Source: Patescibacteria group bacterium
GTDB taxonomy: Bacteria > Patescibacteriota > Patescibacteriia > Patescibacteriales > UBA12465
Reading direction: 5' to 3'
NCBI GenBank assembly: GCA_041658665.1
Contig: JBAZZR010000001.1
Span: 384,576-448,575 of the forward strand
Length of the DNA: 64,000 nt
Below are positions 2,645-54,112 of the stretch, in pieces (positions within the stretch are counted from its first letter, which is position 1; each line of letters starts with the position of its first letter). The notes below the pieces were generated by a model. That model saw only the letters and a list, made by a program, of their open reading frames with translations, ran no database searches and had not been told where the DNA came from. The position numbers and the translations under genes are program-made.

Positions 2645-2664
2645 TTATAAAAATAATTGATTAT

Positions 2665-4056
2665 ATGGCTCAGATTTTAATAAAATCATTATATCGGTCA
2701 ACCGCTGAATATTTAAATAAAGAAATAAGCGTATCGGGCTGGGTGCGAACGGTTCGCAGTTCTAAAGATTTTGGTTTTATTGAGATTAATGATGGCTCAT
2801 TTTTTAAGGGGCTGCAGGTGGTTTTTTCTAGTGATCTAAATAATTTTGCTGAAATAGAGAAAGCTAGCGTCGGTTCGTCGCTGGTAGTCAAGGGGACACT
2901 AGTTGAGTCGCCCGCCGCCGGACAAACTTTCGAGCTTAAAGCTAAAGAAATTACGGTTTTGAGTTTAGCGGCGGCTGATTATCCGCTACAAAAGAAGAAA
3001 CATAGTTTCGAATTTTTACGGACGATTTCTCATCTCCGGGTGCGCAGTAATACTTTTTCGGCAGTTTTTCGCTTACGTTCCGTTTTAAGTTTTGCTATTC
3101 ATAAATTTTTTCAAGAGGAAGGATTTGCTTATATCCAAACGCCGATAATTTCCACTAGCGACTGCGAAGGAGCAGGGGAGATGTTCCAAGTAACAACGCT
3201 TGATTTAAAGAAACCGATTCTAAATGATCAGGGAGAGATAAATTATACTGAAGATTTTTTTGGTAAGAAGACGGGGCTAAGCGTTAGCGGCCAGCTTAAT
3301 GCGGAGGCTCTCGTTATGGGGTTGAATAAAGTTTATACTTTTGGGCCGACTTTTCGGGCAGAAAATTCTAATACGACGCGGCATGCGTCGGAATTTTGGA
3401 TGATGGAGCCTGAAATGGCTTTTGCCGATTTGGCCGATGACATGGCTCTCGCTGAAAAAATGTTGAAATATTTAGTAGCCGAGGTGCTGAAGGAATTGCC
3501 GGAAGAAATGGAATTCTTTAATAAATTTATTGATCCGGGAATTTCTGAACGCCTAAATAATATTATTAATTCCGATTTTGGTCGGATAAGCTATACGGAG
3601 GCCATTCAGATTCTAGAGACATCGGCTGAGAAATTTATTTATCCGGTTAAATGGGGAATTGATTTACAAACCGAACACGAAAGATATTTAACGGATAAAG
3701 TTTTTAAAAAACCAGTTTTCGTTATAGATTATCCTAAAGATATTAAGGCTTTTTATATGCGTTTAAATGACGACGAAAAAACCGTGGCGGCTATGGATTT
3801 ACTGGTTCCGGGCGTTGGAGAAATAATCGGGGGGAGTCAAAGAGAAGAACGATTAACTAATTTAGAGAAAAGGATGACTGAGATGGGTTTAAATAAAGAA
3901 GATTACGCCTGGTATTTAGATTTGCGAAAATACGGATCGGTTAAGCACGCGGGTTTTGGTTTAGGTTTTGAACGCTTAATTATGTATATTTCCGGTATGG
4001 CGAATATTCGTGATGTTATTCCGTTCCCGCGGACGCCGAAAAACGCGGAATTTTAA
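2665..4056 (+). CDS. asnS: Asparaginyl-tRNA synthetase
   Basis: 463 aa. [27 protein letters not shown] and C-terminal GFGLGFERL signatures are typical of AsnRS. Confidence 0.9.
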
Positions 4057-5099: not shown

Positions 5100-5843
5100 A
5101 TGATGGATTTTACTACGGAAAAATTTTCTGGCCCCCTTGGTCTTCTGTTAAGCCTAATTGAAAGCGAAGAGATGGATATTACCGAAATCGCTTTGGCTAA
5201 AATAGCGGATGATTATGTCGGCTATATTCGGTCGGCCAAGAATATTAATCCCGAGGAATTGGCGGATTTTTTGCTTATTGCCGCCAAGCTACTGTTTATA
5301 AAATCTAAAGCCCTCTTACCTTATCTTTATTCCGCAGCCGAGGAGGAGGAGATAAACGATTTAGAACATCAGCTAAAGATGTATAGAGAATTTGTGGCGG
5401 CTAGTCGGCAGGTAAAAGAAATAATAAATACTAGACATTGGTTATATCTACCCCCTTTTAGTAACGCTCGTAACCGGCGGAGCCAGTTTAATCTGCCAGT
5501 GTTTGCGCCGCCCGCTAAAATAAATACCGGTCTCTTGCATGAGCGTTTTTTAGAGATTTTAGGCGGTCTAGAGAAACAGCTGGAAAAAAATAAAGAAGAA
5601 AAATTATTAGAAGAAACTTGGGAAACTAAAATTAGTATTGATGATCAAATTGTTATTATTAAGCAAATGCTAGTTGATAAGATTAAAGTAAATTTTTCTC
5701 GACTTTTGGCCGCGGCTAAGACAAAAACGGAAATTATTGTAAATTTTTTAGCGGTTTTAGAGCTCGCCAAACAACAAGAATTAATTTTTGAACAAAGCGA
5801 ATTATTCAGCGAGATTCATATTAGTCGGCTGGTGGAGAAATAA
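5100..5843 (+). CDS. scpA: Segregation and condensation protein A
   Basis: 247 aa. N-terminal F.GPLGLLLSLIE..EMDITEI..A.I.D.Y motif is typical of ScpA. Followed by scpB. Confidence 0.8.
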   Translation: MMDFTTEKFSGPLGLLLSLIESEEMDITEIALAKIADDYVGYIRSAKNINPEELADFLLIAAKLLFIKSKALLPYLYSAAEEEEINDLEHQLKMYREFVAASRQVKEIINTRHWLYLPPFSNARNRRSQFNLPVFAPPAKINTGLLHERFLEILGGLEKQLEKNKEEKLLEETWETKISIDDQIVIIKQMLVDKIKVNFSRLLAAAKTKTEIIVNFLAVLELAKQQELIFEQSELFSEIHISRLVEK

Positions 5844-5884
5844 TAATCTCTCGATTCGGCCAATATTAAAATTTCTATAATATT

Positions 5885-6451
5885 ATGTCCCTGAAATCAC
5901 AATTAGAATCCTTACTCTTCGTTTCTTTAAAGCCCCTAACTTTAAAAGATTTAGCGTCTTTGACCGACACAAAAATTAAGGAAGTAGAAGCGGCTGCTAA
6001 TGAATTATTTTTAGACTATCAGGCGGGTGATCGAGGTTTAACCTTAATTAAGAATAATCAACAATACCAACTAACTACTAGTGCCGCTAATTCGGCGGTA
6101 GTCCAGAAGTTATTGAAAGATGAAACGAGCGGTGAATTGTCTCAGCCTAGCTTAGAAGCGTTAACGATAATTGCTTATCGCGGTCCGATTGCTAAATTAG
6201 AGTTAGATCGTATCCGCGGCGTAAATTGTAGTCTGATTATTCGTAATTTACTCCTGCGTGGTTTAATTGAAGAAAGTTTTGATAAGACAAAAAATGAAAA
6301 TTTTTATACAATTACCAATGATTTTATTCGTTTTTTGGGTTTGAGACAGCTGAGCGATTTGCCCGATTACGATAAATTGAGTCGGGCGGAAACGGTTGAT
6401 GAAGTTCTTAGAGCGGCGGCTAGTTTATTACCGGCTGCTTTAGAGCACTAA
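5885..6451 (+). CDS. scpB: Segregation and condensation protein B
   Basis: 188 aa. LESLLFVS..PLT...L start and tandem winged-helix layout. Directly downstream of scpA. Confidence 0.8.
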   Translation: MSLKSQLESLLFVSLKPLTLKDLASLTDTKIKEVEAAANELFLDYQAGDRGLTLIKNNQQYQLTTSAANSAVVQKLLKDETSGELSQPSLEALTIIAYRGPIAKLELDRIRGVNCSLIIRNLLLRGLIEESFDKTKNENFYTITNDFIRFLGLRQLSDLPDYDKLSRAETVDEVLRAAASLLPAALEH

Positions 6452-6460
6452 TTTTATCCC

Positions 6461-7336
6461 ATGTTGTTTTCTATTATTACTAATTTAATAGTTTGGTTGG
6501 TTCTTAATCATAATATTGAGTCAAGCGCCTGGCAATCTCCGGGGCCGATTATTTTTTTGAAACCTCAAGCGGAAATTTTGAAGTTAACTTCTCCGCGGGC
6601 CGCCGTTTTTTCGGTGAGCGATCAGCTGTTTTTATTAACTAAAAAAGCGGACGAAACTCAGCCGATTGCTAGTATTACTAAGCTCATGACCGCCTTAGTT
6701 TTTTTAGATAATAATCCCGGTTGGGATAATATTTATGAAATTAGCGCGATTGATAAAGTTTTGGGGGGGCGTCTGAATCTTTTTCCCGGCGACCGGGTTA
6801 AGCTTCGGGATTTATTTTATACTAGTTTAGTAGCGTCTGATAACGGCGCGACGCTAGCTTTAGTCCATGCGAGCGGTTTAAGCGAGAAAGAGTTTGTTTT
6901 ACGGATGAATATTAAGGCGCAAGAGCTTAATTTAGAAAAGACTAATTTTTCCGATCCGGTTGGCTTAAGTGATGATAATATTTCTAACGCCCGTGAGGTC
7001 GCACTACTGGCTAAAGCCGCTTTAGCTAGAGAAGAGATTCGGTTAGCGACGTCGAAGCGAATTTACCTTTTTAATACTCTAGGAGGCAAAGAGAAGAAAA
7101 TTGAATCGACTGACGATTTATTATTTGTCGGAAATTCTGGCACTCTACAAGTTTTAGGCGGGAAGACGGGGTATACTGAGAAAGCGGGTTATTGTTTTGT
7201 CGGACTACTTAAAAATTCGGCCGGTCGGGAATTTATTTCCGTTATTTTAAATAGCAATAGCCGCGCCGGTCGATTTGCTGAAAGCCAAAAATTAGTCGAT
7301 TGGATAATTAATAATTATGAATGGCAGAAAGATTAA
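6461..7336 (+). CDS. D-alanyl-D-alanine carboxypeptidase (peptidase S11 / PBP5-like)
   Basis: 291 aa with an N-terminal membrane anchor. SxxK (SITK), SxN (SDN) and KTG (KTGYT) active-site motifs are in the correct order. Confidence 0.8.
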   Translation: MLFSIITNLIVWLVLNHNIESSAWQSPGPIIFLKPQAEILKLTSPRAAVFSVSDQLFLLTKKADETQPIASITKLMTALVFLDNNPGWDNIYEISAIDKVLGGRLNLFPGDRVKLRDLFYTSLVASDNGATLALVHASGLSEKEFVLRMNIKAQELNLEKTNFSDPVGLSDDNISNAREVALLAKAALAREEIRLATSKRIYLFNTLGGKEKKIESTDDLLFVGNSGTLQVLGGKTGYTEKAGYCFVGLLKNSAGREFISVILNSNSRAGRFAESQKLVDWIINNYEWQKD

Positions 7337-10026: not shown

Positions 10027-11358
10027 ATGGCTAAAAAAAAGCCGGAAAAAATTAAAAAACATCAGGTTAATAAGAAGTCGGCTAAAAAGAGTCCGATTAT
10101 TAAAGCTAAAGATAATCGTGTTGTTAAGACCGAAAAATTCCGCAAGATAAAGACAACTAATAAGAAAACAAAAAAAGAAAAAAAGTCAGCGGCATTTTCC
10201 CGAACAAAGGTTCATCGATCGAAGGATTTAGTGCGGGTCAGGGAAGAACATATAGCAGTAAAACCAACGGAAGAGGCGATAAAAAAGTTAATTGATAAGG
10301 GGCGACTGCGCGGCTTCGTTACCGAAACCGAATTATTATATTTGTTTCCGGAAATTGAAGAGTATGTTTATGACTATGATGTCTTTTTAGGCGAACTGCA
10401 AAGAAGCGGCGTCAGAATTATGGAAGATTCTGGCCGAATTTTAGATACGGCAGAAAAGAAAGCTCAAGAGCCGGTTTTAACGGGTCGCGCCTTAGCTCAT
10501 CAGAACGCTCTTAATATTGATTTATCGAAATTAAGCGCTGACTCTATTCAGATGTATTTGAAAGAAATTGGCAAGGTCCCTCTTTTAAGCGGCGATGAAG
10601 AAGTCGAATTAGCGAAGCGGAAAGAGAAGGGCGATAAGGAGGCGGAGAAAAAAATAATTGAAGCGAATTTGCGTCTCGTTGTTTCTATCGCTAAGAAATT
10701 TGCCGGCGCTAAAGGCATGAGTTTACTGGACTTAATTCAAGAAGGAAATATCGGTTTATTTCGGGCGGTCGAAAAATTTGAGTATCGGAAGGGCTATAAA
10801 TTTTCTACTTATGCGACCTGGTGGATCCGCCAGGCGATTACGCGTGCTTTAGCCGATCAGTCGCGGACTATTCGTATTCCGGTTCATATGGTCGAAAATA
10901 TTAATAAATTTCAACAGGTGCAGCGTAATTTAATCCAAGAATTAGGGCGTGAACCGCTTGCTGACGAAATCGCTTCCGAAATGGGGGAGAGTATTGAAAA
11001 AGTTCGTTATATTATGAAAATATCTCAGGACACTATTTCGCTTGAGACAACTATTGGGGACGATGGCGAGGACTCGACTTTAGAAGATTTTATTGAAGAC
11101 GTTAAGAATATTACGCCGGATCGCGCCGCCGCTTTACAGCTTTTAAAAGATTACGTGAAGAATATTGTCGCTCAGCTATCCCCACGAGAACAGAAGATTT
11201 TAGAAATGCGTTTTGGTTTAATTGACGGTGTTGCCCATACTTTAGAAGAGGTCGGGCAGGAATTCGAGGTTACTCGGGAACGTATTCGTCAGATTGAGTC
11301 TAAAGCCCTAGAGAAGATTCGGAAGTTTAAGGGTTTAGAGAAGTTGAGGGATTATTAA
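10027..11358 (+). CDS. rpoD: RNA polymerase primary sigma factor (sigma-70)
   Basis: 443 aa. Lys-rich N-terminus. Conserved regions 2.x ([16 protein letters not shown]), 3 and 4.2 ([20 protein letters not shown]). Confidence 0.9.
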
Positions 11359-11512: not shown

Positions 11513-11564
11513 ATATATACAAAATGTTTTAAAACATTTTTGTTTTTTGAAAGTAATTTAATAT

Positions 11565-11867
11565 TCCCGGGTAGCGCAGCGGTAGCGCAGTTGGCTGTGA
11601 ACAATAAACGCAGCTTCCTCAGGTAACTGAGGTCGAATAACGAGGTGAATTGTCTGGAAGCCTAAATCCGTAAGGACATGGTAATCAGCAGCCAAGCCCT
11701 GACTTGTCAGGAAAGGTTCAGAGACTATCTCGAAAGAGAGTAGGTCCGTCTAGGAGACGGCCCGAAGCGCCTCGCGCCCTTATAGGGTGATGATATAGTC
11801 CACCCCATTAAGAAATTAGTGGATAAGTGTAACCAATTGGTCGTCGGTTCGAATCCGACCCCGGGAG
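11565..11867 (+). tRNA. tRNA-Asn(GUU) interrupted in the anticodon loop by a group I intron
   Basis: Exon 1 is 11565-11598 and exon 2 is 11830-11867. Together they fold into a full cloverleaf: acceptor TCCCGGG/CCCGGGA, D-arm GCGC-AGCGGTA-GCGC, anticodon stem GTTGG/CCAAT, T-arm GTCGG-TTCGAAT-CCGAC. The joined loop CTGTTAA gives anticodon GTT. U1:A72 and G73 fit bacterial tRNA-Asn. No encoded CCA. Confidence 0.8.
11599..11829 (+). ncRNA. Group I self-splicing intron (small, ORF-less, tRNA-type/IC3-like)
   Basis: P1 forms between exon GGCTGT and intron GCAGCT (11610-11615), with a U.G wobble at the splice site. Core strings GGACATGGTAATCAGCAGCCAAGCCC, GGTTCAGAGACTA and GATATAGTCC parallel the Tetrahymena/Azoarcus cores. 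GAAA and GTAA-type hairpins are present. The terminal base is G. Confidence 0.8.
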
Positions 11868-11873
11868 CTAAAT

Positions 11874-11906
11874 AAAAATAGAGGCTAATAGCCTCTATTT
11901 TTATTT
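11874..11906 (+). terminator. Intrinsic terminator after the tRNA
   Basis: ATAGAGGC-TAATA-GCCTCTAT hairpin followed by TTTTTATTT. Confidence 0.7.
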
Positions 11907-11907
11907 C

Positions 11908-12088
11908 ATCTTCAGGATTTAGGGATTCGAACAGGTCAGAAGCGAAACAAGTTCGAGACGCTATTTCGAGCGGCGAGAACGCAGGTGAGCGTCGCTAAGC
12001 CCGCCCCGGGCGGGCTTAGCGCTGACCCAGGGCAAGTGAGCGACGCGGAAGCGGAGCGAGCGCGATAATCCCTATCCCCGAGCAGTTT
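11908..12088 (+). other. GC-rich structured element (candidate small RNA or recombination site)
   Basis: No ORF, yet much more GC-rich than its surroundings. 13-bp GC hairpin CGCTAAGCCCGCC-CCG-GGCGGGCTTAGCG (11993-12021). Closing pair TAGGGATT (11920-27) / AATCCCTA (12067-74). Sits between two terminators. Confidence 0.35.
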
Positions 12089-12116
12089 TAAATAGCCCTG
12101 AAACAGGGCTATTTTT
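12089..12116 (+). terminator. Intrinsic terminator closing the GC-rich element
   Basis: ATAGCCCTG-AAA-CAGGGCTAT hairpin followed by TTTTT. Confidence 0.65.
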
Positions 12117-12161
12117 GATATGGAGTTTATTGCCTTAGAACAGTATGTTATAATTAAATAT

Positions 12162-12699: not shown

Positions 12700-12759
12700 G
12701 TTCCAACTATATCCCAACCTCGGAGCATAGAAAAGACGAGAGTAAAATCTCGTTTTTTT
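12700..12759 (+). repeat. Junction module copy: tRNA-3'-end-like segment plus terminator hairpin
   Basis: GTTCCAACTATATCCCAACCTCGGAGCA differs at 2 of 28 positions from the copy at 14966. Followed by an ACGAGA/TCTCGT hairpin and a T-run. Confidence 0.5.
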
Positions 12760-12826
12760 ATGATAAGTAATTATAGTATGATAAATAACAATAAATATTA
12801 ATGTTAAATAAGCCAAAATATAGTTA

Positions 12827-14424: not shown

Positions 14425-14490
14425 GCTTCGAACATCGTCAGCGACTCCGAGCAAATAGACAAAATAGCACTAATGTGCTATTTTTGTTGT
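14425..14490 (+). repeat. Junction module copy (tRNA-3'-end-like segment plus terminator) with no ORF in front
   Basis: GCTTCGAACATCGTCAGCGACTCCGAGCA, then an AAAATAGCAC-TAAT-GTGCTATTTT hairpin. Confidence 0.5.
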
Positions 14491-14965: not shown

Positions 14966-15030
14966 GTTCCAACCATATCTCAACCTCGGAGCAAGTAGAC
15001 AAAATAGCACTTTCGTGCTATTTTTGTTAT
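14966..15030 (+). repeat. Junction module copy (tRNA-3'-end-like segment plus terminator)
   Basis: GTTCCAACCATATCTCAACCTCGGAGCA, then an AAAATAGCAC-TTTC-GTGCTATTTT hairpin with the same stem as the copy at 14461. Confidence 0.5.
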
Positions 15031-19801: not shown

Positions 19802-19900
19802 GCGTCGAATCTGACCTTGGGAGCAGATAAAAATACTAGCATAAAATGCTAGTATTTTTATTTCAGCATGGCTCTAGGATTCGGACAGGTTAGAAGCGAG
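19802..19900 (+). repeat. Best-preserved direct repeat of the tRNA 3' end, terminator and downstream sequence
   Basis: About 100 nt align colinearly with 11846-11947: GTCGAATCTGACCTTGGGAGCA, then hairpin ATACTAGC/GCTAGTAT, TTTTTATTTC, then AGGATTCGGACAGGTTAGAAGCGA. The hairpin stem shows compensatory changes relative to the tRNA terminator. Confidence 0.65.
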
Positions 19901-22866: not shown

Positions 22867-22898
22867 GGTCGTTCTGACTATATCTCAATCTCAGCGCA
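22867..22898 (+). repeat. Degenerate junction module copy (tRNA-3'-end-like)
   Basis: GGTCGTTCTGACTATATCTCAATCTCAGCGCA keeps the tRNA variable-loop/T-stem start GGTCGT and resembles the copies at 12700 and 14966. Confidence 0.35.
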
Positions 22899-22901
22899 GC
22901 A

Positions 22902-22931
22902 TTGACAAAAAATATTCCAATGTGATATATT
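22902..22931 (+). promoter_or_regulatory. Reiterated promoter module, copy E (diverged)
   Basis: TTGACAAAAAATAT...TGTGATATATTTTTTTATTG, with TTGACA plus TATATT at an 18-nt spacer. Confidence 0.45.
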
Positions 22932-22981
22932 TTTTTATTGATCTTTAAAATTAATGTTTAATTAGAATAGGAGAAAAAGTA

Positions 22982-23047
22982 ATGGAAGAAAATAATCTTT
23001 GTTGTCTTGTTGATCATAACAATGATCACGTAACTCTAAATTCTTAG
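22982..23047 (+). CDS. Possible 21-aa micro-ORF (MEENNLCCLVDHNNDHVTLNS)
   Basis: AGGAG lies 8 nt upstream of the ATG, and the ORF is downstream of promoter copy E. Too short to assess by composition. Confidence 0.25.
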   Translation: MEENNLCCLVDHNNDHVTLNS

Positions 23048-23088
23048 TAATTGAACTTCGGAACGAGTGGTGCTAGTATTAAAATAGT

Positions 23089-23262
23089 ATGAAAAAAAAT
23101 TATAAAAAAATACTATATTTTGTTTTAGCCATATTATTTGGTGTGTTTATGTTTGTATACGGCGAATTTGATGATAGTCCTGGTGGGCAACTGATAGGGC
23201 TAATAGCGTTTATTATCGGTGTTATTGGCCTCATAATGAGCAGGCAGAAGACTTCTGATTAA
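23089..23262 (+). CDS. Possible 57-aa two-TM membrane protein
   Basis: ORF below the track cut-off: MKKNYKKILYFVLAILFGVFMFVY...LIGLIAFIIGVIGLIMSRQKTSD. Two clear hydrophobic helices. No obvious SD. Confidence 0.35.
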   Translation: MKKNYKKILYFVLAILFGVFMFVYGEFDDSPGGQLIGLIAFIIGVIGLIMSRQKTSD

Positions 23263-23284
23263 ATTACTGTTCTTTTATCGTTTG

Positions 23285-23314
23285 CAAAATAGCACTTTTT
23301 GTACTATTTTTGTT
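23285..23314 (+). terminator. Terminator hairpin of the AAAATAGCAC family
   Basis: AAAATAGCAC-TTTTT-GTACTATTTT. One mismatch relative to the copies at 14461 and 15001. Confidence 0.5.
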
Positions 23315-23329
23315 ATATAAACTAAAAAT

Positions 23330-23668
23330 ATGAATTGGCAATCCAGTTTTAAAAAAGGTAAAGAGATTATATTATCCACTTCTTCAAAAAATAATATTCC
23401 TAATGCTAATATTGTTATTTCTTTAGGTTTTATTAGAAATAAGTTGTTAATAGCGGATTGTCAAATGAAGAACACAATAAAAAATTTAAAAGCAAATAAT
23501 CATATTTGTGTTATTGGCGGATATTTTAGAATTAAAGGAAAGGTTAATATTTTTTCTTCCGGAAAATATTTTGATATTTGCGTTAAAAATAGTGCTAACT
23601 ATAAAGTTAAAAATGCTATTTTAATAACTATAAAAGAGGTCTTTGATCTAAACATATGTCAAGAATAA
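23330..23668 (+). CDS. Pyridoxamine 5'-phosphate oxidase-like (FMN-binding split barrel) family protein
   Basis: 112 aa. The pattern KEIILSTSSKNNIPNANIV...IADCQMKNTIKNLKANNHICV resembles small PNPOx-like proteins. Tentative. Confidence 0.45.
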   Translation: MNWQSSFKKGKEIILSTSSKNNIPNANIVISLGFIRNKLLIADCQMKNTIKNLKANNHICVIGGYFRIKGKVNIFSSGKYFDICVKNSANYKVKNAILITIKEVFDLNICQE

Positions 23669-23934
23669 TTACTAAAAAAGTTCTCCCTGAATATTTCCAA
23701 GATATTCTAGACGGAAAAAAGAAATATGAGCTAAGACTTAATGATTTTGAGATTGAGCCAGGTGACACTTTAATTTTAGAAGAGTATACTTCGACTGATC
23801 CAAACGTAAGACAGGCTACTGGCAGAGTAATTGAAAAACAAGTCACCTATCTAAGAAAATTTAAGTTACAAGATTTGTGGTGGAGTGAAAAAGATGTTAA
23901 AGAGAAGGGGGTTCAAATAATTTCCTTTAAATAA
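23656..23934 (+). CDS. ASCH/DUF3850-like domain protein
   Basis: 92 aa. VLPEYFQDILDGKKKYELRLNDFEIEPGDTLILEEY matches my recollection of the DUF3850 (ASCH-like) pattern. 13-nt overlap with the previous ORF. Confidence 0.55.
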   Translation: MSRIITKKVLPEYFQDILDGKKKYELRLNDFEIEPGDTLILEEYTSTDPNVRQATGRVIEKQVTYLRKFKLQDLWWSEKDVKEKGVQIISFK

Positions 23935-24028
23935 TATAACCATTTAATATTTGAGTATTATTAAACATTTTTAAATTTTTACTTATAGTTAGTCCTCCAA
24001 TCCAAAGCTATAAACACGTTTAGTATAT

Positions 24029-24074
24029 GGAGCTCCGATAAAAAATAGACTAATATTAGTTTATTTTTTATTTT
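24029..24074 (+). repeat. Junction module copy (tRNA acceptor-end-like GGAGCT plus terminator)
   Basis: GGAGCTCCGATAAAAAATAGACTAATATTAGTTTATTTTTTATTTT parallels GGGAGCTAAATAAAAATAGAGGCTAATAGCCTCTATTTTTATTTC at the true tRNA end. Confidence 0.4.
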
Positions 24075-24078
24075 ATTA

Positions 24079-24107
24079 TTGACATATATTAAATTTAGTT
24101 GTAAAAT
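24079..24107 (+). promoter_or_regulatory. Sigma-70-type promoter for the 211-aa orphan
   Basis: TTGACA, 17-nt spacer, TAAAAT. Confidence 0.5.
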
Positions 24108-24192
24108 TTTATGATGCTTAATTATATGGCATAACCTAAATCTGTCAGGTAAAGTACAGACTAATAGTAATTTAAAAAAAGAGCTGTGTGCG

Positions 24193-24828
24193 ATGGGAAA
24201 CATTGTAAGCAGTCGTAAGTTAAGTGTTCATAAAGAACACGAAGTTCTTCAGAAGTTAGAGGATGGTGGGTTGAATGATCGAATTGCTCAGTACATTATT
24301 GAGAGCAAGGAAAATAAAATTGCTAAAAAATTAATTTCTCGGGCGGAGGAATTGATCATTGAAGAAACGGTATTTAAAATAATACCTTTTGTTTCGTTTT
24401 CTTCTCTTGAAGAAGGGAAGGAATTCACAATAATCCACCCGAAAATTAAAAGCGGTGAGTTCTTGGCCCAGCTGCCTTTGATGGATGCTCATGGAATGGA
24501 CGTGATTTTACTTAAATGTAGTTATCGGCATCTTGCAAATTCTATGTATCAAAAATTTCGTTTTATTTCCGCTGCTCATTTAGTAGTTTTGGGCAAGAAT
24601 TATCCTGAAGTAGTAAAAGTATGCAGACATATTATGTCTCTTGACCCTAGTTGCCATTTAGGAGGAACCCCTAACAAACAATATGGGATGAAACATAGGG
24701 AATTCCTCACTCTTAATTATTTTGATGTTTACCAACATTTAGTAAATCCGGGTTCTACTCTTTCATTTGAAAGGGAAAAATTTGGCGATGATGCTAATGT
24801 TTGGTTCGCAGTGACTCCAATTAGTTAG
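24193..24828 (+). CDS. Hypothetical protein (orphan 1)
   Basis: 211-aa ORF with its own promoter and terminator. No motif recognised. The N-terminus is MGNIVSS. Confidence 0.6.
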   Translation: MGNIVSSRKLSVHKEHEVLQKLEDGGLNDRIAQYIIESKENKIAKKLISRAEELIIEETVFKIIPFVSFSSLEEGKEFTIIHPKIKSGEFLAQLPLMDAHGMDVILLKCSYRHLANSMYQKFRFISAAHLVVLGKNYPEVVKVCRHIMSLDPSCHLGGTPNKQYGMKHREFLTLNYFDVYQHLVNPGSTLSFEREKFGDDANVWFAVTPIS

Positions 24829-24836
24829 CCTAGAAG

Positions 24837-24870
24837 GTCCTAATCAGCGTATATGATTAGGACTTTCTTC
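24837..24870 (+). terminator. Intrinsic terminator
   Basis: GTCCTAATC-N9-GATTAGGAC hairpin followed by TTTCTTC. Confidence 0.6.
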
Positions 24871-24978
24871 AAATAACCGGACTCTCAAAACTAGCTTTAA
24901 TTAATGGATAGATATCATAAATTCGAGAAATATATGATTTTTTATTTCAACAAGTAAATTCAACACTCTCGAACCAAA

Positions 24979-25007
24979 TTGACAAAAATATAGTTCCATG
25001 CTATATT
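24979..25007 (+). promoter_or_regulatory. Reiterated promoter module, copy A
   Basis: TTGACAAAAATATAGTTCCATGCTATATT: TTGACA, 17-nt spacer, extended -10 TGCTATATT, then a T-run. Confidence 0.55.
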
Positions 25008-25142
25008 TTTTTCATTATATAGTTATTTAATAAAAAATGTCCGATTAGTTTATCGGTTAGTATTTATTGAATTATCTAAGCTCCTCTAATCTGGGCGTTT
25101 AGACAGTTCAATAAATATTAATTAAATTAATCGGAGTTAATA

Positions 25143-26738
25143 ATGGAAAATAGTGTAGTTAGTTCCTATTCGGATTTGCTTGATAAGACGAATCTGATAT
25201 TTGTTAAGCTTTTGGAGTGGGAAAGTAAGGAAGATATTGAGCCAAAATATTATATGCAGCGGCTTGAAGAGAATCCTGTCCAGACTATGAGCTTAAGAAT
25301 AGTTCCCAGCGCAGTAGTCTTTTTTCTAAAAAGATTATTTTGTATTTTAACCGGCATGATTGCCGAGAAAGCGATGTTGGAGATCGATAAAAAAACTGAG
25401 ACAAGATTATTAAAAAATATGGTCTGGGCAGGAGTTTATGCCCTAGATCTATTAAAGAGTAGTTTATCTCAGTACAGTGGCATAAAATGTTTGTCAGTAT
25501 CTAATAATAAATTGACCTGCACCTTTAAGTCTCCTTTAGACCTGGGTGCGGTTAAAGACATTCTTAGCGATCCTTATTCGAGTATTAATCAATTAGTGGT
25601 TGAAAGACGAGAGGAGAATAGAATTCTTAATTATTATTTGATGATTGACGGACGGGACGTCCTAGTAGTCTCGAATTATAGTATTAGTTTCATATATAAA
25701 GTCACGTCCGATGATTGGGAAGAATATCTACAGATGTTTGTAGAGATTATCGCTCGTGTTCATCGCGATTTACTTTATCGAGAAGGTCTTAGAAACGTAT
25801 TTATGAATACCTATAATGCCTTCTATCGTTTAATGTCTCCTGAAATGTTCAATGATAGTGAATTAACGTCATGGTTTGAAAGCGTTAGGAAACTGGTACT
25901 TGCAGGAGGAATACAGAAAGATAAGTCATTTTCTGAAACAAAAAAATCGAGACTTTATCATAAAACTGATAAACTCTATCGATTGGTACAACCACTGTCT
26001 CATCTAAACTATATAGTCGTCTGTCCGGACAAGAAGGAACTCTATATTAGTTTTAGACCATTTTTTGATTTTAAGGCGATTGGAGAATATTTAGGAAAAA
26101 CCAATTTGTCGCTAGATCAAAGAAAAGAAGACGTGGAGTACAAAAAGGTTCTAAAGAAAGGAGCCGGGCGTCGAAAATCTGAAGGGATTATACATGTTAC
26201 ATTCAATGATGTTATTAATCAGAAGAAACAAAGGATCGCTTCGTTCGACGGCCAATCGATTATTGTTTTGTATTTAGCTGATCAAGAAATTTTTGCAGAA
26301 GGACTCCAATTATTTAATTATATATACTATAATTGGATTTATTATACCTCCTGGATTCCAACCGCGGATGTTCCGCATTCTGACTTAGATAGTGTTGATA
26401 GAACAGTAATTACCAATATTGATATTTTATTTCATATTTATTCAACATTTTTGGGCGTTATCTTAAGTAAAGAATATTTTCGCTCAGATCGTATGAATAC
26501 CTTAACGACGAAAGAATGGTTGATTAATTTTTTAAGTATTGATCCCGCCCTTCGTTATGAAGAGAAAATGTTGCATTTATTACAGTTCATGAAAGACAAA
26601 ATTAATTTGCAGGAATTTTTAAGTCATACGACGGGGGATAGTTTCGAAGATGATGAAGCTAGAAAAAGGTTAATCGATTTATATGCTAAATTGTGTTCGC
26701 AATTATCGCTTACTCAGGCGTATGTAAATTCATTGTGA
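25143..26738 (+). CDS. Hypothetical protein (orphan 2)
   Basis: 531-aa ORF. No recognisable catalytic motif. Apparent internal duplication (see findings). Confidence 0.65.
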   Translation: MENSVVSSYSDLLDKTNLIFVKLLEWESKEDIEPKYYMQRLEENPVQTMSLRIVPSAVVFFLKRLFCILTGMIAEKAMLEIDKKTETRLLKNMVWAGVYALDLLKSSLSQYSGIKCLSVSNNKLTCTFKSPLDLGAVKDILSDPYSSINQLVVERREENRILNYYLMIDGRDVLVVSNYSISFIYKVTSDDWEEYLQMFVEIIARVHRDLLYREGLRNVFMNTYNAFYRLMSPEMFNDSELTSWFESVRKLVLAGGIQKDKSFSETKKSRLYHKTDKLYRLVQPLSHLNYIVVCPDKKELYISFRPFFDFKAIGEYLGKTNLSLDQRKEDVEYKKVLKKGAGRRKSEGIIHVTFNDVINQKKQRIASFDGQSIIVLYLADQEIFAEGLQLFNYIYYNWIYYTSWIPTADVPHSDLDSVDRTVITNIDILFHIYSTFLGVILSKEYFRSDRMNTLTTKEWLINFLSIDPALRYEEKMLHLLQFMKDKINLQEFLSHTTGDSFEDDEARKRLIDLYAKLCSQLSLTQAYVNSL

Positions 26739-26750
26739 GTATTTTTTATG

Positions 26751-26781
26751 GCTCCTGTCAGTTTTTTGACAGGAGTTTTTT
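26751..26781 (+). terminator. Intrinsic terminator
   Basis: CTCCTGTCA-N6-TGACAGGAG hairpin followed by TTTTTT. Confidence 0.75.
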
Positions 26782-26829
26782 AATATATGTGTATATTCCT
26801 TATTATATTTGATAGAATTTCGACGTGAT

Positions 26830-26858
26830 TTGACAGAATTATATTAGTATGATACATT
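26830..26858 (+). promoter_or_regulatory. Reiterated promoter module, copy D
   Basis: TTGACAGAATTATATTAGTATGATACATT, followed by the conserved TTATTACTTTAACAA leader. Confidence 0.5.
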
Positions 26859-26880
26859 AATTTATTACTTTAACAAACGT

Positions 26881-26928
26881 TTATAACCATCTTTTTGAGT
26901 ATTGAGATGCTTAGAAAGATGGTTATAA
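26881..26928 (+). promoter_or_regulatory. 5'-UTR hairpin (14-bp perfect stem) ahead of orphan 3
   Basis: TTATAACCATCTTT (26881-94) pairs perfectly with AAAGATGGTTATAA (26915-28). It lies between the promoter and the AAGGAG RBS. Confidence 0.45.
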
Positions 26929-26974
26929 GTTATATAAATAAAATAATTCATAAAATAATTCAAGGAGATCTAAA

Positions 26975-28168
26975 ATGAAACTAGTAGCTAATAGTGGCGC
27001 GACTGGTAATGCAACGCTAGCAATCAGATGGTGTTTGGAGGATGAGGAAATTTCGGCATTGCGTGAATTAGTAATTACTGATCCTTACATTTTATTTGTT
27101 GTTGTTCATAAGCATGAAAATGTTGATCGGAAACTGGTTCGTCTCAACGAACTAATGGTTTTTTTGCCTCTTAATAATCCAGGTGATAATACGGTGTTCG
27201 CTACGATTGTTTGGCATAAGACTAAAAAGAAATTGGACGAATGGTGTCTGGAGAGGAATAAATATGGGTGTTATAAAACTGATTTTTATGACATTGAAGA
27301 TGATTCATTACGACATGGCGATTTAGGAAAAACCCGGATGGAGGTTAATGTTTCATCGGAATTTTTTGCTAAAGAACCGCCGGCCTGGGAAAAAAAGTGG
27401 GTTAATTTATGGTTTGGTGGGAAAAGGGCGCGTAATAGTTGCGATTATGGTAAACGCCGTATGCTGGCTTATTCGGTTCAGCCGATTCCGGTTCTAGTGT
27501 TTATAGTATTTATTACCATTTTTCGTTTTTTGGCAGCGGCCTTTTGGATTTTAATTCGGACTAAGACTAAGGTTGATTTACGGCCTATTATTCACCCTTT
27601 TAAATACGAAAGCGATGATGTTTGGTTTTACGCTACATCAGCCCGGAATTTTTATGAAAAGGATAAAGATGGTAAAGATAGGGCAACAGCAGTCTGGCTT
27701 TATCACCCCGTAACTATCATCGTTATGGCAGTAGTACTTTTTTATATTACCATAGATCAACCCAGGTTATTTGTGAGTCTACATATTCCTTCGGTCTGGT
27801 GGGCATATATTCTATTAAGTCCCATCTTTACTACTCTGTTAGCTATTGGAGCCATTGTTGTCGCGGTAGTTATCGTCGGACTAGTAAAACTAGGTTTCTT
27901 GATTTTTAGCCGGTTTTTTCCCTCTAAAAGTGAAGAACAATCGCAGGAACTTCTCGAAGAAAAAACGGCTGAGCAAATAAAAGCCGAGCAGGAAGAAGCG
28001 GATCTTAAATTAAAGCTTAAATTAGTTGAAGATAATTTGACCTGGCTCGCCTGTAATCAAGAACAACCGGTTCCGAAACTCAGCGCTCTGCCTAGAGAAA
28101 AACGAACTGTGTATTTACACTTTTTAGATTTAAAATCAAAATGGTGTAAACCCTTCCCCGGAGTCTAA
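26975..28168 (+). CDS. Hypothetical membrane protein (orphan 3)
   Basis: 397 aa. Soluble N-terminal domain of about 170 aa, about 4 TM helices, and an acidic coiled-coil C-terminus. AAGGAG RBS. Confidence 0.65.
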   Translation: MKLVANSGATGNATLAIRWCLEDEEISALRELVITDPYILFVVVHKHENVDRKLVRLNELMVFLPLNNPGDNTVFATIVWHKTKKKLDEWCLERNKYGCYKTDFYDIEDDSLRHGDLGKTRMEVNVSSEFFAKEPPAWEKKWVNLWFGGKRARNSCDYGKRRMLAYSVQPIPVLVFIVFITIFRFLAAAFWILIRTKTKVDLRPIIHPFKYESDDVWFYATSARNFYEKDKDGKDRATAVWLYHPVTIIVMAVVLFYITIDQPRLFVSLHIPSVWWAYILLSPIFTTLLAIGAIVVAVVIVGLVKLGFLIFSRFFPSKSEEQSQELLEEKTAEQIKAEQEEADLKLKLKLVEDNLTWLACNQEQPVPKLSALPREKRTVYLHFLDLKSKWCKPFPGV

Positions 28169-28193
28169 TCGGAGTCAAGTGAATTCTTATCTC

Positions 28194-28227
28194 AAATCCC
28201 AGACTGATCAAAAGTCTGGGATTTTTA
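28194..28227 (+). terminator. Intrinsic terminator
   Basis: AATCCCAGACT-N7-AGTCTGGGATT hairpin followed by a T-run. Confidence 0.75.
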
Positions 28228-28284
28228 TTTGATTTATGCTATATTTAAAGTGGTTTACTAATTTAAACTAAATAGTTTTAATTC

Positions 28285-28310
28285 TTTTACAAAATGCTTT
28301 TAGGGATGGA
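28285..28310. repeat. Inverted repeat, left arm
   Basis: TTTTACAAAATGCTTTTAGGGATGGA. Its reverse complement matches 28730-28755 at 25 of 26 positions. Confidence 0.6.
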
Positions 28311-28340
28311 ATAAATAATAAACTGTACTCCAAAAAGGAG

Positions 28341-28676
28341 GTGATTATATTGGGTCTAAAGTATGAATCGATTAACATTTTTCGTTCAAATTTACCGGCC
28401 ATAATTCATCCGTACAATGTCCGCGTTATCGCCGTTCGTCCTTGGTGGCATTTCTTTTTGTTTACAAACGGCCAAACCGAGGCGATATTTCTTAAGCTGA
28501 ATTGTCTAGATAAAGAATCTGTGCTTTTAGGAATTACGGCCGCTCTTAAGAAGGAAGGAGGTATTTACGCCAAAACTTTTCTTAAATGTATTAAACACGT
28601 TACCATTTCTCAGGGACGTGAAACCAACCTAAAAATTGACTGGTCCGAAAAAGATCAGTGCCTACAACTTGAATAG
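28341..28676 (+). CDS. Hypothetical protein (orphan 4)
   Basis: 111-aa ORF (GTG in the track; in-frame TTG at 28350) preceded by a strong AAGGAGG. Bracketed by the 26-bp inverted repeats. Confidence 0.5.
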   Translation: MIILGLKYESINIFRSNLPAIIHPYNVRVIAVRPWWHFFLFTNGQTEAIFLKLNCLDKESVLLGITAALKKEGGIYAKTFLKCIKHVTISQGRETNLKIDWSEKDQCLQLE

Positions 28677-28729
28677 CGTTTCTCGTTATCAAGAATGGGA
28701 GCTTATATTTCCGTTCCATCTATAAGCTC

Positions 28730-28755
28730 TCCATCCCCAAAAGCATTTTGTAAAA
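28730..28755. repeat. Inverted repeat, right arm
   Basis: TCCATCCCCAAAAGCATTTTGTAAAA. It ends 2 nt before the -35 of promoter copy B. Confidence 0.6.
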
Positions 28756-28757
28756 AA

Positions 28758-28804
28758 TTGACAGAAATATAGCCTAATGCTATATTTTTTTATTACTTTA
28801 ACAA
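28758..28804 (+). promoter_or_regulatory. Reiterated promoter/leader module, copy B
   Basis: TTGACAGAAATATAGCCTAATGCTATATTTTTTTATTACTTTAACAA. 5 mismatches in 53 nt relative to copy C. Confidence 0.55.
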
Positions 28805-28836
28805 TCAATTTTATTTAATTAATAGAGGAGTCACTC

Positions 28837-29202
28837 ATGTTAACGATTGCTGTTATTTTTATATCTACCGCTCTTTTACTCTACTCTACGGCTATTTGGT
28901 CGGAAAGAATTATAGGGGTGTTAAAATTATGGATGATAAGAATTTTTATTTCGGCTTTTGTCTGTGACTTATTAGCGACGTCTCTGATGGCTTATCAAGC
29001 GACAACTAGGTTCGAGCTTAATGCCCATAGTCGCTCGGGTTATATAGCCTTAGGTATCATGGGGTTACATTTTATTTGGGCCATTATCGCCATAAGATGC
29101 AAAGGTCAAGCGGAAAAATATTTTCATCGTTTCTCCCTATTGGCTTGGCTCATTTGGTTAGCCGCTTTTATTAGCGGTGTGCCTAAAGTTCATTTTTTTT
29201 AA
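28837..29202 (+). CDS. Small 4-TM membrane protein (possibly TIGR03987/HsmA-like)
   Basis: 121 aa with four hydrophobic helices. The family name is from recollection only. Confidence 0.5.
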   Translation: MLTIAVIFISTALLLYSTAIWSERIIGVLKLWMIRIFISAFVCDLLATSLMAYQATTRFELNAHSRSGYIALGIMGLHFIWAIIAIRCKGQAEKYFHRFSLLAWLIWLAAFISGVPKVHFF

Positions 29203-29205
29203 CAG

Positions 29206-29237
29206 AAAATCCTCGTCAGCTGATGGGGATTTTTTTA
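29206..29237 (+). terminator. Intrinsic terminator
   Basis: ATCCTC-N12-GGGGAT hairpin (one G.U pair) followed by TTTTTTT. Confidence 0.55.
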
Positions 29238-29353
29238 TTTAGATTATTTAATTTCTAGTTTCTCAATTTAAAGTTTTTGCTTCGTCGATTAATGTCCCCG
29301 TCCTATTTTTAATCATTAGTACCTTTAAGAAATTGAAAAAAATTGAATAAAAA

Positions 29354-29400
29354 TTGACAAAAATATGGCATAATGCTATATTTTTTTATTACCTTAACAA
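29354..29400 (+). promoter_or_regulatory. Reiterated promoter/leader module, copy C
   Basis: TTGACAAAAATATGGCATAATGCTATATTTTTTTATTACCTTAACAA. Confidence 0.55.
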
Positions 29401-29438
29401 TTAATTAACCAATAAACATAAGTGTAGCAAAGGAGTTC

Positions 29439-36777: not shown

Positions 36778-37182
36778 CTAACCGCCTTTTTTTTTCTGGC
36801 ACTTAATACAGAACCCAGTTTCTGGTATTGCCTTCAGGCGAGCGGCGCCTATTGTTTCTTGACAATCAGCACATTTTCCAGAAAATGTTCCTTCGAGTAT
36901 TCGAATAATAACATTCTGTAGTAGTAACATCTTCGTGTTATTATTCCCGGATCTTGACAGCAGGGGCGCTAAATTCTCGATCTGAGAATTGTCGCCGGGG
37001 TCAGTATGATAGCTTCGGCCGTCATCAGCCCCATCTTTTATAGATTCCTTAATATTCTGTGTAATATTTAAGGATTCTTTTAATTTTATTTGAGCCCCTT
37101 TAAATATATCCTCTAAATCTTCTTGGGAGAGTTCGCAAGCCGGATTTGTTGGAATTCTTGTAGTTTTTTGAACATTTTTCAT
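36778..37182 (-). CDS. DksA/TraR-family C4 zinc-finger protein
   Basis: 134 aa. C-terminal CADCQETIGAARLKAIPETGFCIKCQ (CxxC-x17-CxxC) is typical of the TraR/DksA family. Confidence 0.75.
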   Translation of the reverse strand: MKNVQKTTRIPTNPACELSQEDLEDIFKGAQIKLKESLNITQNIKESIKDGADDGRSYHTDPGDNSQIENLAPLLSRSGNNNTKMLLLQNVIIRILEGTFSGKCADCQETIGAARLKAIPETGFCIKCQKKKGG

Positions 37183-37551
37183 TATATTCCTTAGAAATAG
37201 TTTTAGAAATAGTTTGAGATTTGAAAAATAGTTTAAGAAATAAGTATTTTTTCGGTTTAATACCGAGTTTTGATTAGCTTGGTGCTTTTTTAGGCATCGC
37301 GTTCTCCTTGTTAATGTACGAAATATTGGTTTGTTATAGATTAATACAATTAAAAGTATTTGTCAAATATATAATTACAGATTTTTGTGAAAATTAAAAT
37401 TTATGTTAAACTAAAAATAAAGAAATTAATTTTTTATGTTTTATAATAATAAATTTTGGCTTAGTCTTGACAAAAATATTTTATTAGTATATTAGTTTTA
37501 TCAGTACATTTTTAATTAAATTAAATCTACTCAAAATATCGCGGAGTATTT

Positions 37552-53614: not shown

Positions 53615-54112
53615 GATAAGGCGGTTTGAGCCGCCCAAGCGCTAATTTGTTAGTTTATCTCTGATTCTCGGTAAGACCTAATTGGAAGATCCGTCATCCC
53701 TTTTGGAAAAAGCCGAACGAGATAAATTAACAAATTCGCGTTTAAAGTTTATCTTTAGAGCGAATTGGCGAACCCCTAAAAGGTCGGGCCGCGGATAACG
53801 CGGTGGTTTGTCCCTTATAAATATCAATTCTTCAGTTCCAAGCTCGAACGATTTAGTAATTTGAATAAACAGTAAATCGGTTAAGCTTTTCTCCAGCTAG
53901 CGGGCAACACGCGCTCTGGCTGGCAGGACTTATTACTAAGATCAGCCGGCCTTCGCCTTAAGCCTTAATAAGCTGGTGAAGCGGGATTCCGACTGATTTA
54001 CCGAATTAGTAAAATTTCTGATTTAGTAAAGCGGCGAACTGAACAACTTATCATTATTAATCAGTTTAAACTACTATTGTTTAGACAATTAAAAATGATC
54101 TTAAAATTACTT
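53615..54112 (+). other. Long non-coding, relatively GC-rich structured region (leader or ncRNA) upstream of the surface-protein gene
   Basis: About 0.5 kb with no ORF. Several GC-rich hairpins: GGCGG/CCGCC at 53620, CCGCG-GATAA-CGCGG near 53790, CCAGC...GCTGG near 53895, CTTCGCC...GGTGAAG near 53950. Confidence 0.3.

Follow-up and report, generated by a model that had tools for sequence, protein, structure and literature searches.

The subject of this analysis is a short intergenic module that recurs before unrelated genes in a 64,000-nt stretch of the genome of a Patescibacteria group bacterium (GenBank assembly GCA_041658665.1, contig JBAZZR010000001.1, positions 384,576 to 448,575 of the forward strand; the whole stretch is referred to as the window, and positions are counted from its first nucleotide). 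Almost nothing is known about the transcription signals of Patescibacteria (candidate phyla radiation, CPR), and no description of the module was found in the literature searched. The closest described systems share different parts of its build. With extended -10 sigma-70 promoters (TTGACA-N17-TGnTATAAT) it has in common the hexamers, the 17-nt spacing, the TG at -15/-14 and a location 40-60 nt before open reading frames (ORFs) led by a Shine-Dalgarno (SD) sequence; unlike in these promoters, the spacer and -10 element of the module are self-complementary, its TATATT runs into a T-run, and its sequence is preserved almost without change from one genome to another. Bidirectional intrinsic (Rho-independent) terminators resemble it in the order of A-run, stem, loop and T-run, in their covarying stems and in their position after tRNA genes or gene ends, whereas the module has a predicted AT-rich stem, with 2-3 G-C pairs and a folding energy of -9 to -13 kcal/mol, that contains a complete promoter. 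The boxA leaders of Nus antitermination, found in rrn operons, lambda nut, suhB and CRISPR arrays (PMC5725501, PMC7665894), also carry a motif within the transcribed leader, and in the module too this motif is conserved while the rest of the leader diverges. On the other hand, the motif of the module stands before many protein-coding accessory genes, approximately 3-12 nt from the inferred 5' end, and is not accompanied by boxB or boxC. Finally, the Correia elements of Neisseria, repetitive extragenic palindromes (REP) and bacterial interspersed mosaic elements (BIME) are short dispersed palindromic intergenic repeats able to supply promoters or transcript ends, and the module is similar to them; it differs in that its orientation and its distance to the ORF are fixed and in that it is kept at orthologous loci.

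By comparing the copies of the window with those of other genomes, the function of the module may be outlined. We propose, with a probability of roughly 55%, that it joins a sigma-70 promoter to a terminator hairpin and a boxA-like leader, and that the whole would serve accessory genes as an insulated expression module. Three signals would be packed into ~55-90 nt of intergenic DNA, in a form shared across the clade of Patescibacteria. The near-consensus sigma-70 promoter (TTGACA, 17 nt, TGnTATATT) would be read by the RpoD encoded in the window, and transcription would probably start at the A just after the T-run. Read-through RNA from an upstream tRNA or gene would fold, and the hairpin with its U-tract may act as a weak bidirectional intrinsic terminator; each gene would therefore become an insulated transcription unit. 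In the short 5' leader, the block TTAC(Y)TTAACAA or GATCTTTAA(A/C)A resembles boxA, the site of NusB/NusE, and is followed by the SD sequence. The overlapping constraints would act on almost every position, so that copies before unrelated genes look nearly identical, even where the proteins of two genomes share only 30-65% identity. In the window, the genes headed by the module are accessory and orphan genes of a variable region, which follows an intron-bearing tRNA gene and contains att-like remnants of tRNA 3' ends. Of all this, the anatomy, the conservation, the covariation, the rules of position and the gene context are observed, while the start of transcription, its termination and any binding of Nus factors are predicted.

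A sequence-only reading of this DNA had described a near-identical promoter and leader in front of unrelated genes, and this repeat proved to be real. Its consensus is matched exactly at 28758-28804 (copy A) and 29354-29400 (copy B) in a scan of the window, with 0 matches expected from 100 dinucleotide-preserving shuffles; the two copies show 5 differences in 53 nt, and the repeat search aligned them with 91% identity over 58 nt (28753-28810 versus 29349-29406). The sites at 24979, 22902 and 26830 (copies C, D and E) are partial relatives, and the fragment at 28237 and the looser copy at 37467 are as that reading had given them. In copy C, the promoter part (TTGACA-N17-TGCTATATT and the T-run) is exact and the leader is not shared (69% identity over 58 nt), and the diverged copy E retains the -35 element and TTTATTACTTTAACAA (71% identity). 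In addition, the repeat search revealed a second family with the same build and different arms at 14456 and 14996 and, in degenerate form, at 23281; the last copy has a very short leader, and the same module and gene also occur in two other loci (L081 and L088).

The promoter is the part of the module about which there is least doubt, and the anatomy (TTGACA, 17-nt spacer, TGnTATATT, and same-strand ORFs downstream) makes it very probable that the earlier assignment as promoter plus leader was right. The hexamers, a spacing of 16-18 nt and the TGn of extended -10 sigma-70 promoters are all present, with exact matches in 65 loci. In a consensus scan of 11-31 kb, the sites 22902, 24979, 28758 and 29354 are among eight promoter-like sites scoring 11/12, all four with TG before the -10 element, and the window encodes a full-length primary sigma factor, rpoD (10027-11358; Sigma70_r1_2, r2, r3 and r4 by Pfam). 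Among the palindromic copies of other genomes, 47 of 51 have a same-strand ORF of at least 40 codons downstream, which mostly starts ~40-60 nt after the -10 element and often lies behind AGGAGG. No credible -35 element or TG was seen by eye on the minus strand at the module, and a bidirectional promoter was not seen. The intergenic regions before housekeeping genes of the window instead have TGnTATAAT and no recognisable -35 element; the module may therefore be regarded as a promoter class of its own, presumably a strong one, rather than as the generic promoter. The generic alternative, that the motif lies upstream of a large fraction of all genes, does not apply to this window, where the module stands at ~9 of ~62 genes, eight of them in 14.4-29.4 kb.

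The spacer and the -10 element together form an inverted repeat, composed of an A-run, AATATAGC, a loop, GCTATATT and a T-run; in copy A it reads AAATATAGC-CTAAT-GCTATATTT, with the A-run before and the T-run after. The -10 variants TATATT, TATACT, TATTAT and TATTTT are mirrored in the left arm, and sites outside the search pattern provide the mirrored pairs TATACT/AGTATA, TATTAT/ATAATA and TATTTT/AAAATA as well as GCAC/GTGC. Covariation was measured on 100 TTGACA/TAGACA-N17-TAnWnT sites from 45 CPR loci and the window, which were selected with symmetry ignored. In the hairpin register, 73.5% of the cells are paired, versus 66.1% in shuffles. The covariation score is 0.217, a value attained by 0 of 500 shuffled sets (0.129 +/- 0.010) and above that of slid partners, which give 0.149 at most; a single pair column is composed of GC 25, UA 16, CG 9, UG 6 and AU 5. 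At most 2 mismatches in arms of 12-13 bp were found at 14 of the 77 sites outside the search pattern. Non-Watson-Crick pairs in 95 unique modules are G.T in 34 cases and A.C in 10 (binomial p = 4e-4), a strand-specific bias, and this excess of G.T over A.C fits pairing on the sense strand. RNA folding gave -9.2 kcal/mol (z -4.1) for copy A, -9.9 kcal/mol (z -3.4) for copy B, -11.1 kcal/mol (z -5.7) for copy C, and -13.2, -13.0 and -5.8 kcal/mol for the family-2 copies at 14456, 14996 and 23281, respectively; there was no stable fold at 22902 or 26830 and no hairpin at 37467. Taken together, the covariation, the G.T bias and the compensatory changes in these alignments are what base pairing on the sense strand would leave behind, and not what one protein reading one operator would. 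The identity beyond what a promoter needs, on which the sequence-only reading had remarked, now has its positions: the extra constrained ones are the hairpin arms, the flanking A- and T-runs and the leader motif. A known RNA family was also considered and rejected, as Rfam at the gathering score gives only a group I intron in the window, and a permissive search of 11540-12140 adds nothing credible.

Position is the strongest clue to the role of the hairpin. A real tRNA gene lies 1-3 nt before the start of the module in seven loci, with the specificities Gln (L015, L019, L026), His (L021), Trp (L030), Ser (L039) and Ala (L047). Directly before several other copies lies a conserved ~28-nt piece, GTTCCAACTATATCCCAACCTCGGAGCA, here called the upstream element (UE), which can be aligned to the last 24 nt of true tRNA-Gln genes if a specific 5-nt insertion is allowed for. 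The nhmmer matches of the UE, at 12700, 14966 and 22871 and in seven other loci (L015, L019, L026, L032, L050, L059, L064), are always followed within a few bases by either the promoter module or an ordinary GC-rich terminator. A metagenome scan anchored on the UE only returned 61 contigs (L073-L133), often with two UE per contig, and of 70 complete UE copies, 47 are followed by a stable A-run/hairpin/T-run and 12 by the TTGACA module, with module-like hairpins and a weak -35 element after several more. The T-run of 5-7 is always present after the stem, whose folding energy lies between -9 and -13 kcal/mol (z -3 to -5.7). Family 2 passes both the promoter and the terminator scans; family 1 fails the terminator rule of at least 3 G-C pairs. 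As in intrinsic terminators, the stem is kept by compensatory change, G.U is tolerated, and the position is at the 3' end of a transcription unit. Since the palindrome follows tRNA genes or the UE and is interchangeable there with canonical terminators, it occupies the terminator slot. We infer that upstream transcripts would end at it and that the next transcript would begin there, and a role as terminator or insulator seems to us evenly balanced between yes and no. The UE itself lies just after stop codons, and a terminator-type hairpin almost always comes next; it may be an att remnant or belong to the 3' untranslated region.

The leader block TTAC(Y)TTAACAA lies 9-17 nt after the -10 element and matches 8-9 of the 9 positions of the rrn boxA of E. 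coli (TGCTCTTTAACAA). The motif C[ATC]TT[TA]?AA[CA]A occurs within 50 nt of the -10 element at 51 of 127 promoter-like sites, over a background of 3-5%, with a sharp peak 9 nt after the -10 element, and TTAACAA is the top 7-mer of module leaders (25 of 88) and, with the SD region, the one part of the leader that the hsmA orthologues retain. With the boxA consensus GYTCTTTAANA, which was derived for gamma-proteobacteria (PMC5725501), CTTTAACAA, CCTTAACAA and GATCTTTAAAA agree at 8-10 of 11 positions; boxA is known before protein-coding genes and CRISPR arrays, and its consensus drifts between phyla (PMC5725501; PMC7665894). The boxA reading of the leader is a resemblance, and we hold it tentatively; a translational enhancer or a site for another factor are the alternatives. 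In this context, the leaders at L002:5000 and L050:6152 read TTTGTTTAACTAAAAGGAGG, an 11-nt identity, just before the SD sequence, with the phage T7 gene 10 leader (TTTGTTTAACTTTAAGAAGGAG), a translational enhancer used in pET vectors, although the likeness is confined to a subset and the sequence is short and AT-rich. Similarly, leaders in L002:5036-5075 and L050:6190-6230 read TTTGTTTAACTAAAA(T)AGGAG, with 11 nt in common with that phage leader. An rRNA-operon promoter or leader was rejected, as no copy of the module precedes rRNA at the loci covered: motif searches of 143 loci found no rRNA except for one 16S 3' end (L055), and Rfam found none in 20 module loci and none in the window. A dksA/traR-like gene of the window (36778-37182, minus strand) has a TTGACA promoter and the leader GTACATTAACAAGGAG (region 37309-37366, minus strand), with the leader motif directly against the SD sequence and without a palindrome.

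Several observations weigh against the proposal that promoter, terminator and antitermination signal are combined in the module. Three window copies (22902, 26830, 37467) keep the promoter and have lost the palindrome, which implies that the hairpin is dispensable at least in places. As terminators, the family-1 hairpins are weak (2 G-C pairs, -9 to -11 kcal/mol), compared to -15 to -17.5 kcal/mol for the canonical terminators of the window, and such a canonical terminator already precedes 24979, 26830 and 29354, so that a second one in the module would be superfluous there. Template-switch mutation can produce compensatory changes in quasi-palindromes even when no selection acts, and the plus strand has a positive GC skew, which could add to the G.T excess. 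As for the leader, its motif is unusually close to the inferred 5' end (~3-12 nt) and is absent from copy C and from family 2 with its very short leader, and no nusB was seen in the window; nusE, nusG, nusA and rho are likewise absent from the window and from its flanks, which were covered to 10 kb from the window genes, as is nusB from these flanks.

The module is more general than the sequence-only reading had held. When one genome of each GTDB species was scanned with the exact pattern, 65 loci were obtained, most of them from Patescibacteria (Falkowbacteria, Nealsonbacteria, Saccharimonadales and other bins); some matching third-party-annotation (TPA) bins labelled Gammaproteobacteria look like CPR. 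Including loci fetched later, ~90 unique palindromic copies are available. The genes that they head are unrelated and mostly without assigned function across dozens of genomes, and a Pfam match at E <= 1e-8 was obtained for 9 of 47 headed ORFs. From the -35 element to the ribosome-binding site, ~75 nt are nearly identical in the window copy at 22902, in L002:1687 and in two L030 copies, with unrelated ORFs downstream. Such conservation means either that nearly every position is under selection or that the element moves between genomes. In fact, the copy before the hsmA-family gene can be followed through orthologues: among hsmA homologues with 58-63% amino-acid identity, L136 and L142 have the module just upstream of hsmA, and in L141 it heads a two-gene operon, after a UE. 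The leaders of these three share the block TTACCTTAACAA, the rest having diverged apart from the SD region, and the arms show a compensatory change from AGC/GCT to CC/GG. Downstream of the L141 hsmA homologue, before the next ORF, a family-2 type module (..CGTGCTATTTTTGTTATATATATG) lies in 1279-1400, so both module families co-occur in other genomes too. The orphan genes of the window have no homologues among the GTDB loci. A phage-borne element was rejected, since the pattern has no match in 2.9 million viral contigs. A second assembly of the same organism (Logan SRR8449812) is 100% identical; its contigs break at 11592 (the intron-bearing tRNA), 23608 (near a family-2 module region) and 40662.

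The arrays near tRNA genes raise the possibility that UE and palindrome, with or without the leader, are the recombination site of small integrase-less cassettes inserted at tRNA 3' ends, the promoter being cargo and the palindrome being kept for a recombinase or for folding of single-stranded DNA. This could add to an insulated expression module as well as replace it, and it takes up the mobile promoter cassette of the sequence-only reading. In the L050 array, at least 7 TTGACA promoter sites (4 palindromic) lie in 7 kb, several of them after ..CCGAGCAG; in L059, an array with 4 such sites starts right after tRNA-Gln; and fragments in L030 resemble its own tRNA-Trp. These arrays, L064 and the window repeat one order, a gene or gene group and then a UE or tRNA-like remnant with a hairpin. 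The UE, with its specific 5-nt insertion in 61 metagenome contigs, the diverged direct repeat of tRNA 3' end and terminator that bounds ~8 kb of the window, and four orphan genes that are extra relative to L140 point the same way, as do the near-identical promoters and 5' untranslated regions before unrelated ORFs in three genomes and the many copies that follow a pseudo-tRNA 3' end. As in tRNA-targeted islands and integron arrays, tRNA 3'-end repeats punctuate small unrelated, often orphan genes near a tRNA gene, and as in integron arrays, there is a palindromic element at every junction.

On the other hand, no recombinase travels with the module: the 84 ORFs at 12 array loci include no recurring recombinase of the tyrosine or serine type and no recurring integrase, only one IS200-like Y1 gene and one IS110-like gene. 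Both of these lie in the L059 array downstream of tRNA-Gln (Y1 transposase at 2636-3001, IS110-like gene at 5556-6521), and both families are known to target hairpins or palindromes. An integron cassette array was rejected: there is no integrase, attC R/L boxes are missing, no GTTRRRY core was seen by eye at the junctions, and integron cassettes are usually promoterless, whereas those considered here would carry their own promoter. The element is palindromic and dispersed in the manner of REP or miniature inverted-repeat transposable elements (MITE), but no terminal inverted repeats with target duplication were seen at it and no associated transposase was found; the sole second assembly is identical, and no excised or empty-site pair was observed. 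The viral contigs are also devoid of it, and the bias of G.T over A.C is equally compatible with RNA. Because no recombinase recurs, copies A and B lack the UE, and the hsmA copy was retained before its orthologues in other genomes, that is, inherited with the gene, cassette insertion is an attractive rival or addition and improbable as the main explanation; the mobile cassette proposed earlier is thus supported in part. It is equally doubtful that Patescibacteria possess a so far undescribed gene-acquisition platform at the 3' ends of tRNA-Gln and other tRNA genes, into which small integrase-less cassettes insert serially. If they do, the junction would consist of a pseudo-tRNA 3' end, the terminator/promoter palindrome, which would double as the recombination site, and the boxA-like leader, and each acquired orphan gene would be at once insulated, strongly transcribed and protected from premature termination.

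A simpler possibility, which we regard as rather unlikely, is that the module is an ordinary strong promoter only, the clade-optimal form of the sigma-70 promoter, and that the symmetry is a by-product of A-/T-run composition and template switching. The perfect promoter consensus and the AT-rich composition would be explained, the three window copies without a palindrome presumably work, and canonical terminators precede several copies. However, at the inner arm positions, which no promoter element includes, covariation clearly exceeds that of the shuffled and slid controls. The strand-specific G.T excess, the palindrome retained with compensatory changes across the hsmA orthologues and its replacement of terminators after tRNA and pseudo-tRNA ends also speak against this possibility. 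The housekeeping promoters of the window, moreover, have neither the -35 element nor the symmetry.

The sequence-only reading had also suggested a shared operator, which as the site of one dimeric repressor would place orphan and membrane-lipid genes in a single regulon. Repressor operators classically take the form of a palindrome that overlaps the -10 element, and the outer half-sites ACAAAAATAT/ATATTTTTGT are nearly invariant; yet the inner half-sites vary and covary, and the arms differ between copies of one genome, always complementarily. In L008 and L027, for example, differing arms occur even on one contig (ATC/GAT in L008 versus AGC/GCT in L027). The symmetry centre is shifted by 1-2 nt relative to the -35 and -10 elements between families, so that the half-sites have no fixed position, G.T is tolerated and A.C is not, and the headed genes are unrelated in dozens of genomes. 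We consequently regard this suggestion as very unlikely. Recent local duplication or gene conversion within the island only, to which copies A and B would lend themselves as the most similar window pair (596 bp apart, 4 of 5 loop bases in common), is scarcely credible and is contradicted as the sole explanation, because copies occur across unrelated genomes, the hsmA orthologue loci already carry the module and the Falkowbacteria copy in L061 is as close to copy B (~6 differences in 50 nt) as copy A is; local homogenisation of copies A and B is possible.

Table 1. Positions of module copies, their parts and upstream elements in the window
Feature	Position	Strand	Remarks
Module copy A	28758-28836	+	Before the hsmA-family gene (ATG 28837); exact consensus match
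Copy A, promoter parts			-35 TTGACA 28758-28763; TG 28778-28779; -10 TATATT 28781-28786, then T-run
Copy A, hairpin arms	28763-28773 and 28779-28789
Copy A, leader	28796-28804		CTTTAACAA; SD GAGGAG at ~28824-28829
Module copy B	29354-29438	+	Before cfa (ATG 29439); -35 29354-29359; -10 29377-29382
Copy B, hairpin and leader			Hairpin with one G.T pair; leader CCTTAACAA at 29392-29400
Module copy C	24979-25020	+	Before a 531-aa orphan (ATG 25143); -35 24979-24984; -10 25002-25007
Copy C, palindrome and flank			Palindrome intact; without TTAACAA leader; degenerate pseudo-tRNA 3' end at 24955-24978
Module copy D	22902-22981	+	-35 22902-22907; 18-nt spacer; -10 22926-22931; palindrome decayed
Copy D, leader	22940-22959		GATCTTTAAAATTAATGTTT type; GATCTTTAAAA at 22940; heads a micro-ORF and a 57-aa membrane ORF
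Module copy E	26830-26876	+	Before a 397-aa orphan (ATG 26975); -35 26830-26835; -10 TACATT 26853-26858
Copy E, palindrome and leader			Palindrome lost; leader CTTTAACAA at 26868-26876
Extended -10 fragment	28237-28245	+	TGCTATATT; directly 3' of canonical terminator 28194-28224; before a 111-aa ORF
Loose relative outside the island	37467-37510	+	TTGACAAAAATAT; 15-nt spacer to TATATT; without hairpin; before a 147-aa ORF at 37552
Family-2 module	14456-14490	+	Before TspO gene (ATG 14514); -35 TAGACA; TGC, then -10 TATTTT 14479-14484
Family-2 palindrome of the 14456 copy	14461-14484		AAAATAGCAC-TAAT-GTGCTATTTT
Family-2 module	14996-15030	+	Before a 158-aa NTase-like gene (ATG 15059); palindrome 15001-15024
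Degenerate family-2 module	23281-23329	+	TTTGCA, AAATAGCAC..GTACTATTTT, TATTTT 23305-23310; before PNPOx-like gene (ATG 23330)
Forms of the boxA-like leader motif			TTAACAA/CTTTAAAA; leader RNA form UUACCUUAACAA
UE	22871-22899	+	GTTCTGACTATATCTCAATCTCAGCGCAG; ends 2 nt before the copy D -35; nhmmer E 2.8e-5
UE	14966-14993	+	Directly before the family-2 module at 14996; nhmmer E 4.8e-6
Degenerate UE	14426-14453	+	CTTCGAACATCGTCAGCGACTCCGAGCA; directly before the family-2 module at 14456
UE	12700-12727	+	Then ordinary terminator hairpin 12732-12760, no promoter module; nhmmer E 2.1e-6

If the proposal of an insulated expression module is correct, the overlap of promoter, terminator and leader signal in one palindrome would be a compact design, well fitted to very small genomes, and Nus-type antitermination of protein-coding genes, like cassette insertion at tRNA genes, becomes a hypothesis suggested by the module. 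A non-coding element of ~55-90 nt that is conserved near base for base, where proteins are 30-65% identical, is unusual for non-coding DNA, and it may help to locate transcription units in CPR metagenomes. The element marks accessory and orphan genes adjoining tRNA genes, which are candidates for host-interaction functions of epibionts, and may offer a strong insulated expression cassette for the Patescibacteria genetic systems now being built.

The window (G+C ~36%) has nearly all of its genes on the plus strand. The genes dnaG and rpoD end at 11358 and are followed by a tRNA gene interrupted by a group I intron, and then by accessory genes up to 29.4 kb: NUDIX, Fic, TspO, NTase-like, amine oxidase and ECF sigma factor genes, methyltransferase, phosphatase, PNPOx-like and ASCH genes, and several ORFs without a Pfam match. 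The region ends with the HsmA-family membrane protein, followed by cfa and a macAB-like transporter. The island of the sequence-only reading is a real variable region adjoining a tRNA gene, because it has a tRNA 3'-end direct repeat and four orphan genes that are extra compared to L140. The diverged direct repeat, 11848-11950 and 19802-19900, comprises the tRNA 3' end, a terminator and ~45 nt of flank (78% column identity); its terminators show compensatory stem changes, and it bounds ~8 kb with the NUDIX, Fic, TspO, NTase-like, amine oxidase and ECF sigma genes. These repeats look like the att ends of an old integrase-less island. In addition to the pair 11848/19802, tRNA 3'-end repeats of the kind that accompany genomic islands are present as the Gln copies at 12700, 14966 and 22871 and in the arrays L050, L059 and L064; Pfam found no recombinase, and hence no integrase gene at an end of the island, in 12-29.4 kb, nor one in the array loci. 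In L140 (1125-1857), the ASCH gene (78% amino-acid identity) directly adjoins hsmA, whereas in the window the four orphan genes (24193-28676) lie between them.

Each of these four extra genes has its own promoter and terminator, and cfa and macAB sit between hsmA and a phosphoribosyltransferase gene. The interrupted tRNA gene spans 11565-11870 and was not called by ARAGORN; its intron, 11589-11822, is Rfam RF00028 with 84-86 bits. It has its own TTGACA promoter at 11485, which is also present in L011 and L027; for L027, the presence of the group I intron was confirmed as well. Group I introns have been reported in tRNA genes of Patescibacteria (PMC13011429), and the intron of the window fits this pattern. 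A GC-rich element of ~180 nt, 11905-12085, starts with GGGATTCGAACAGGTCAGAAGCGA and ends with AATCCCTATCCCCGAGCAG, which resembles the 3' end of tRNA-Gln and precedes a terminator. L048, L028 and L050 contain the 3' half of this element in nearly identical form, and in at least 12 metagenome contigs the 5' motif comes after a pseudo-tRNA element and terminator. There is no Rfam match; the element may be an undescribed small RNA gene. Finally, a comparatively GC-rich intergenic region of 462 nt (53615-54076), which has no Rfam match at the gathering score, precedes a 1241-aa ORF without a Pfam match.

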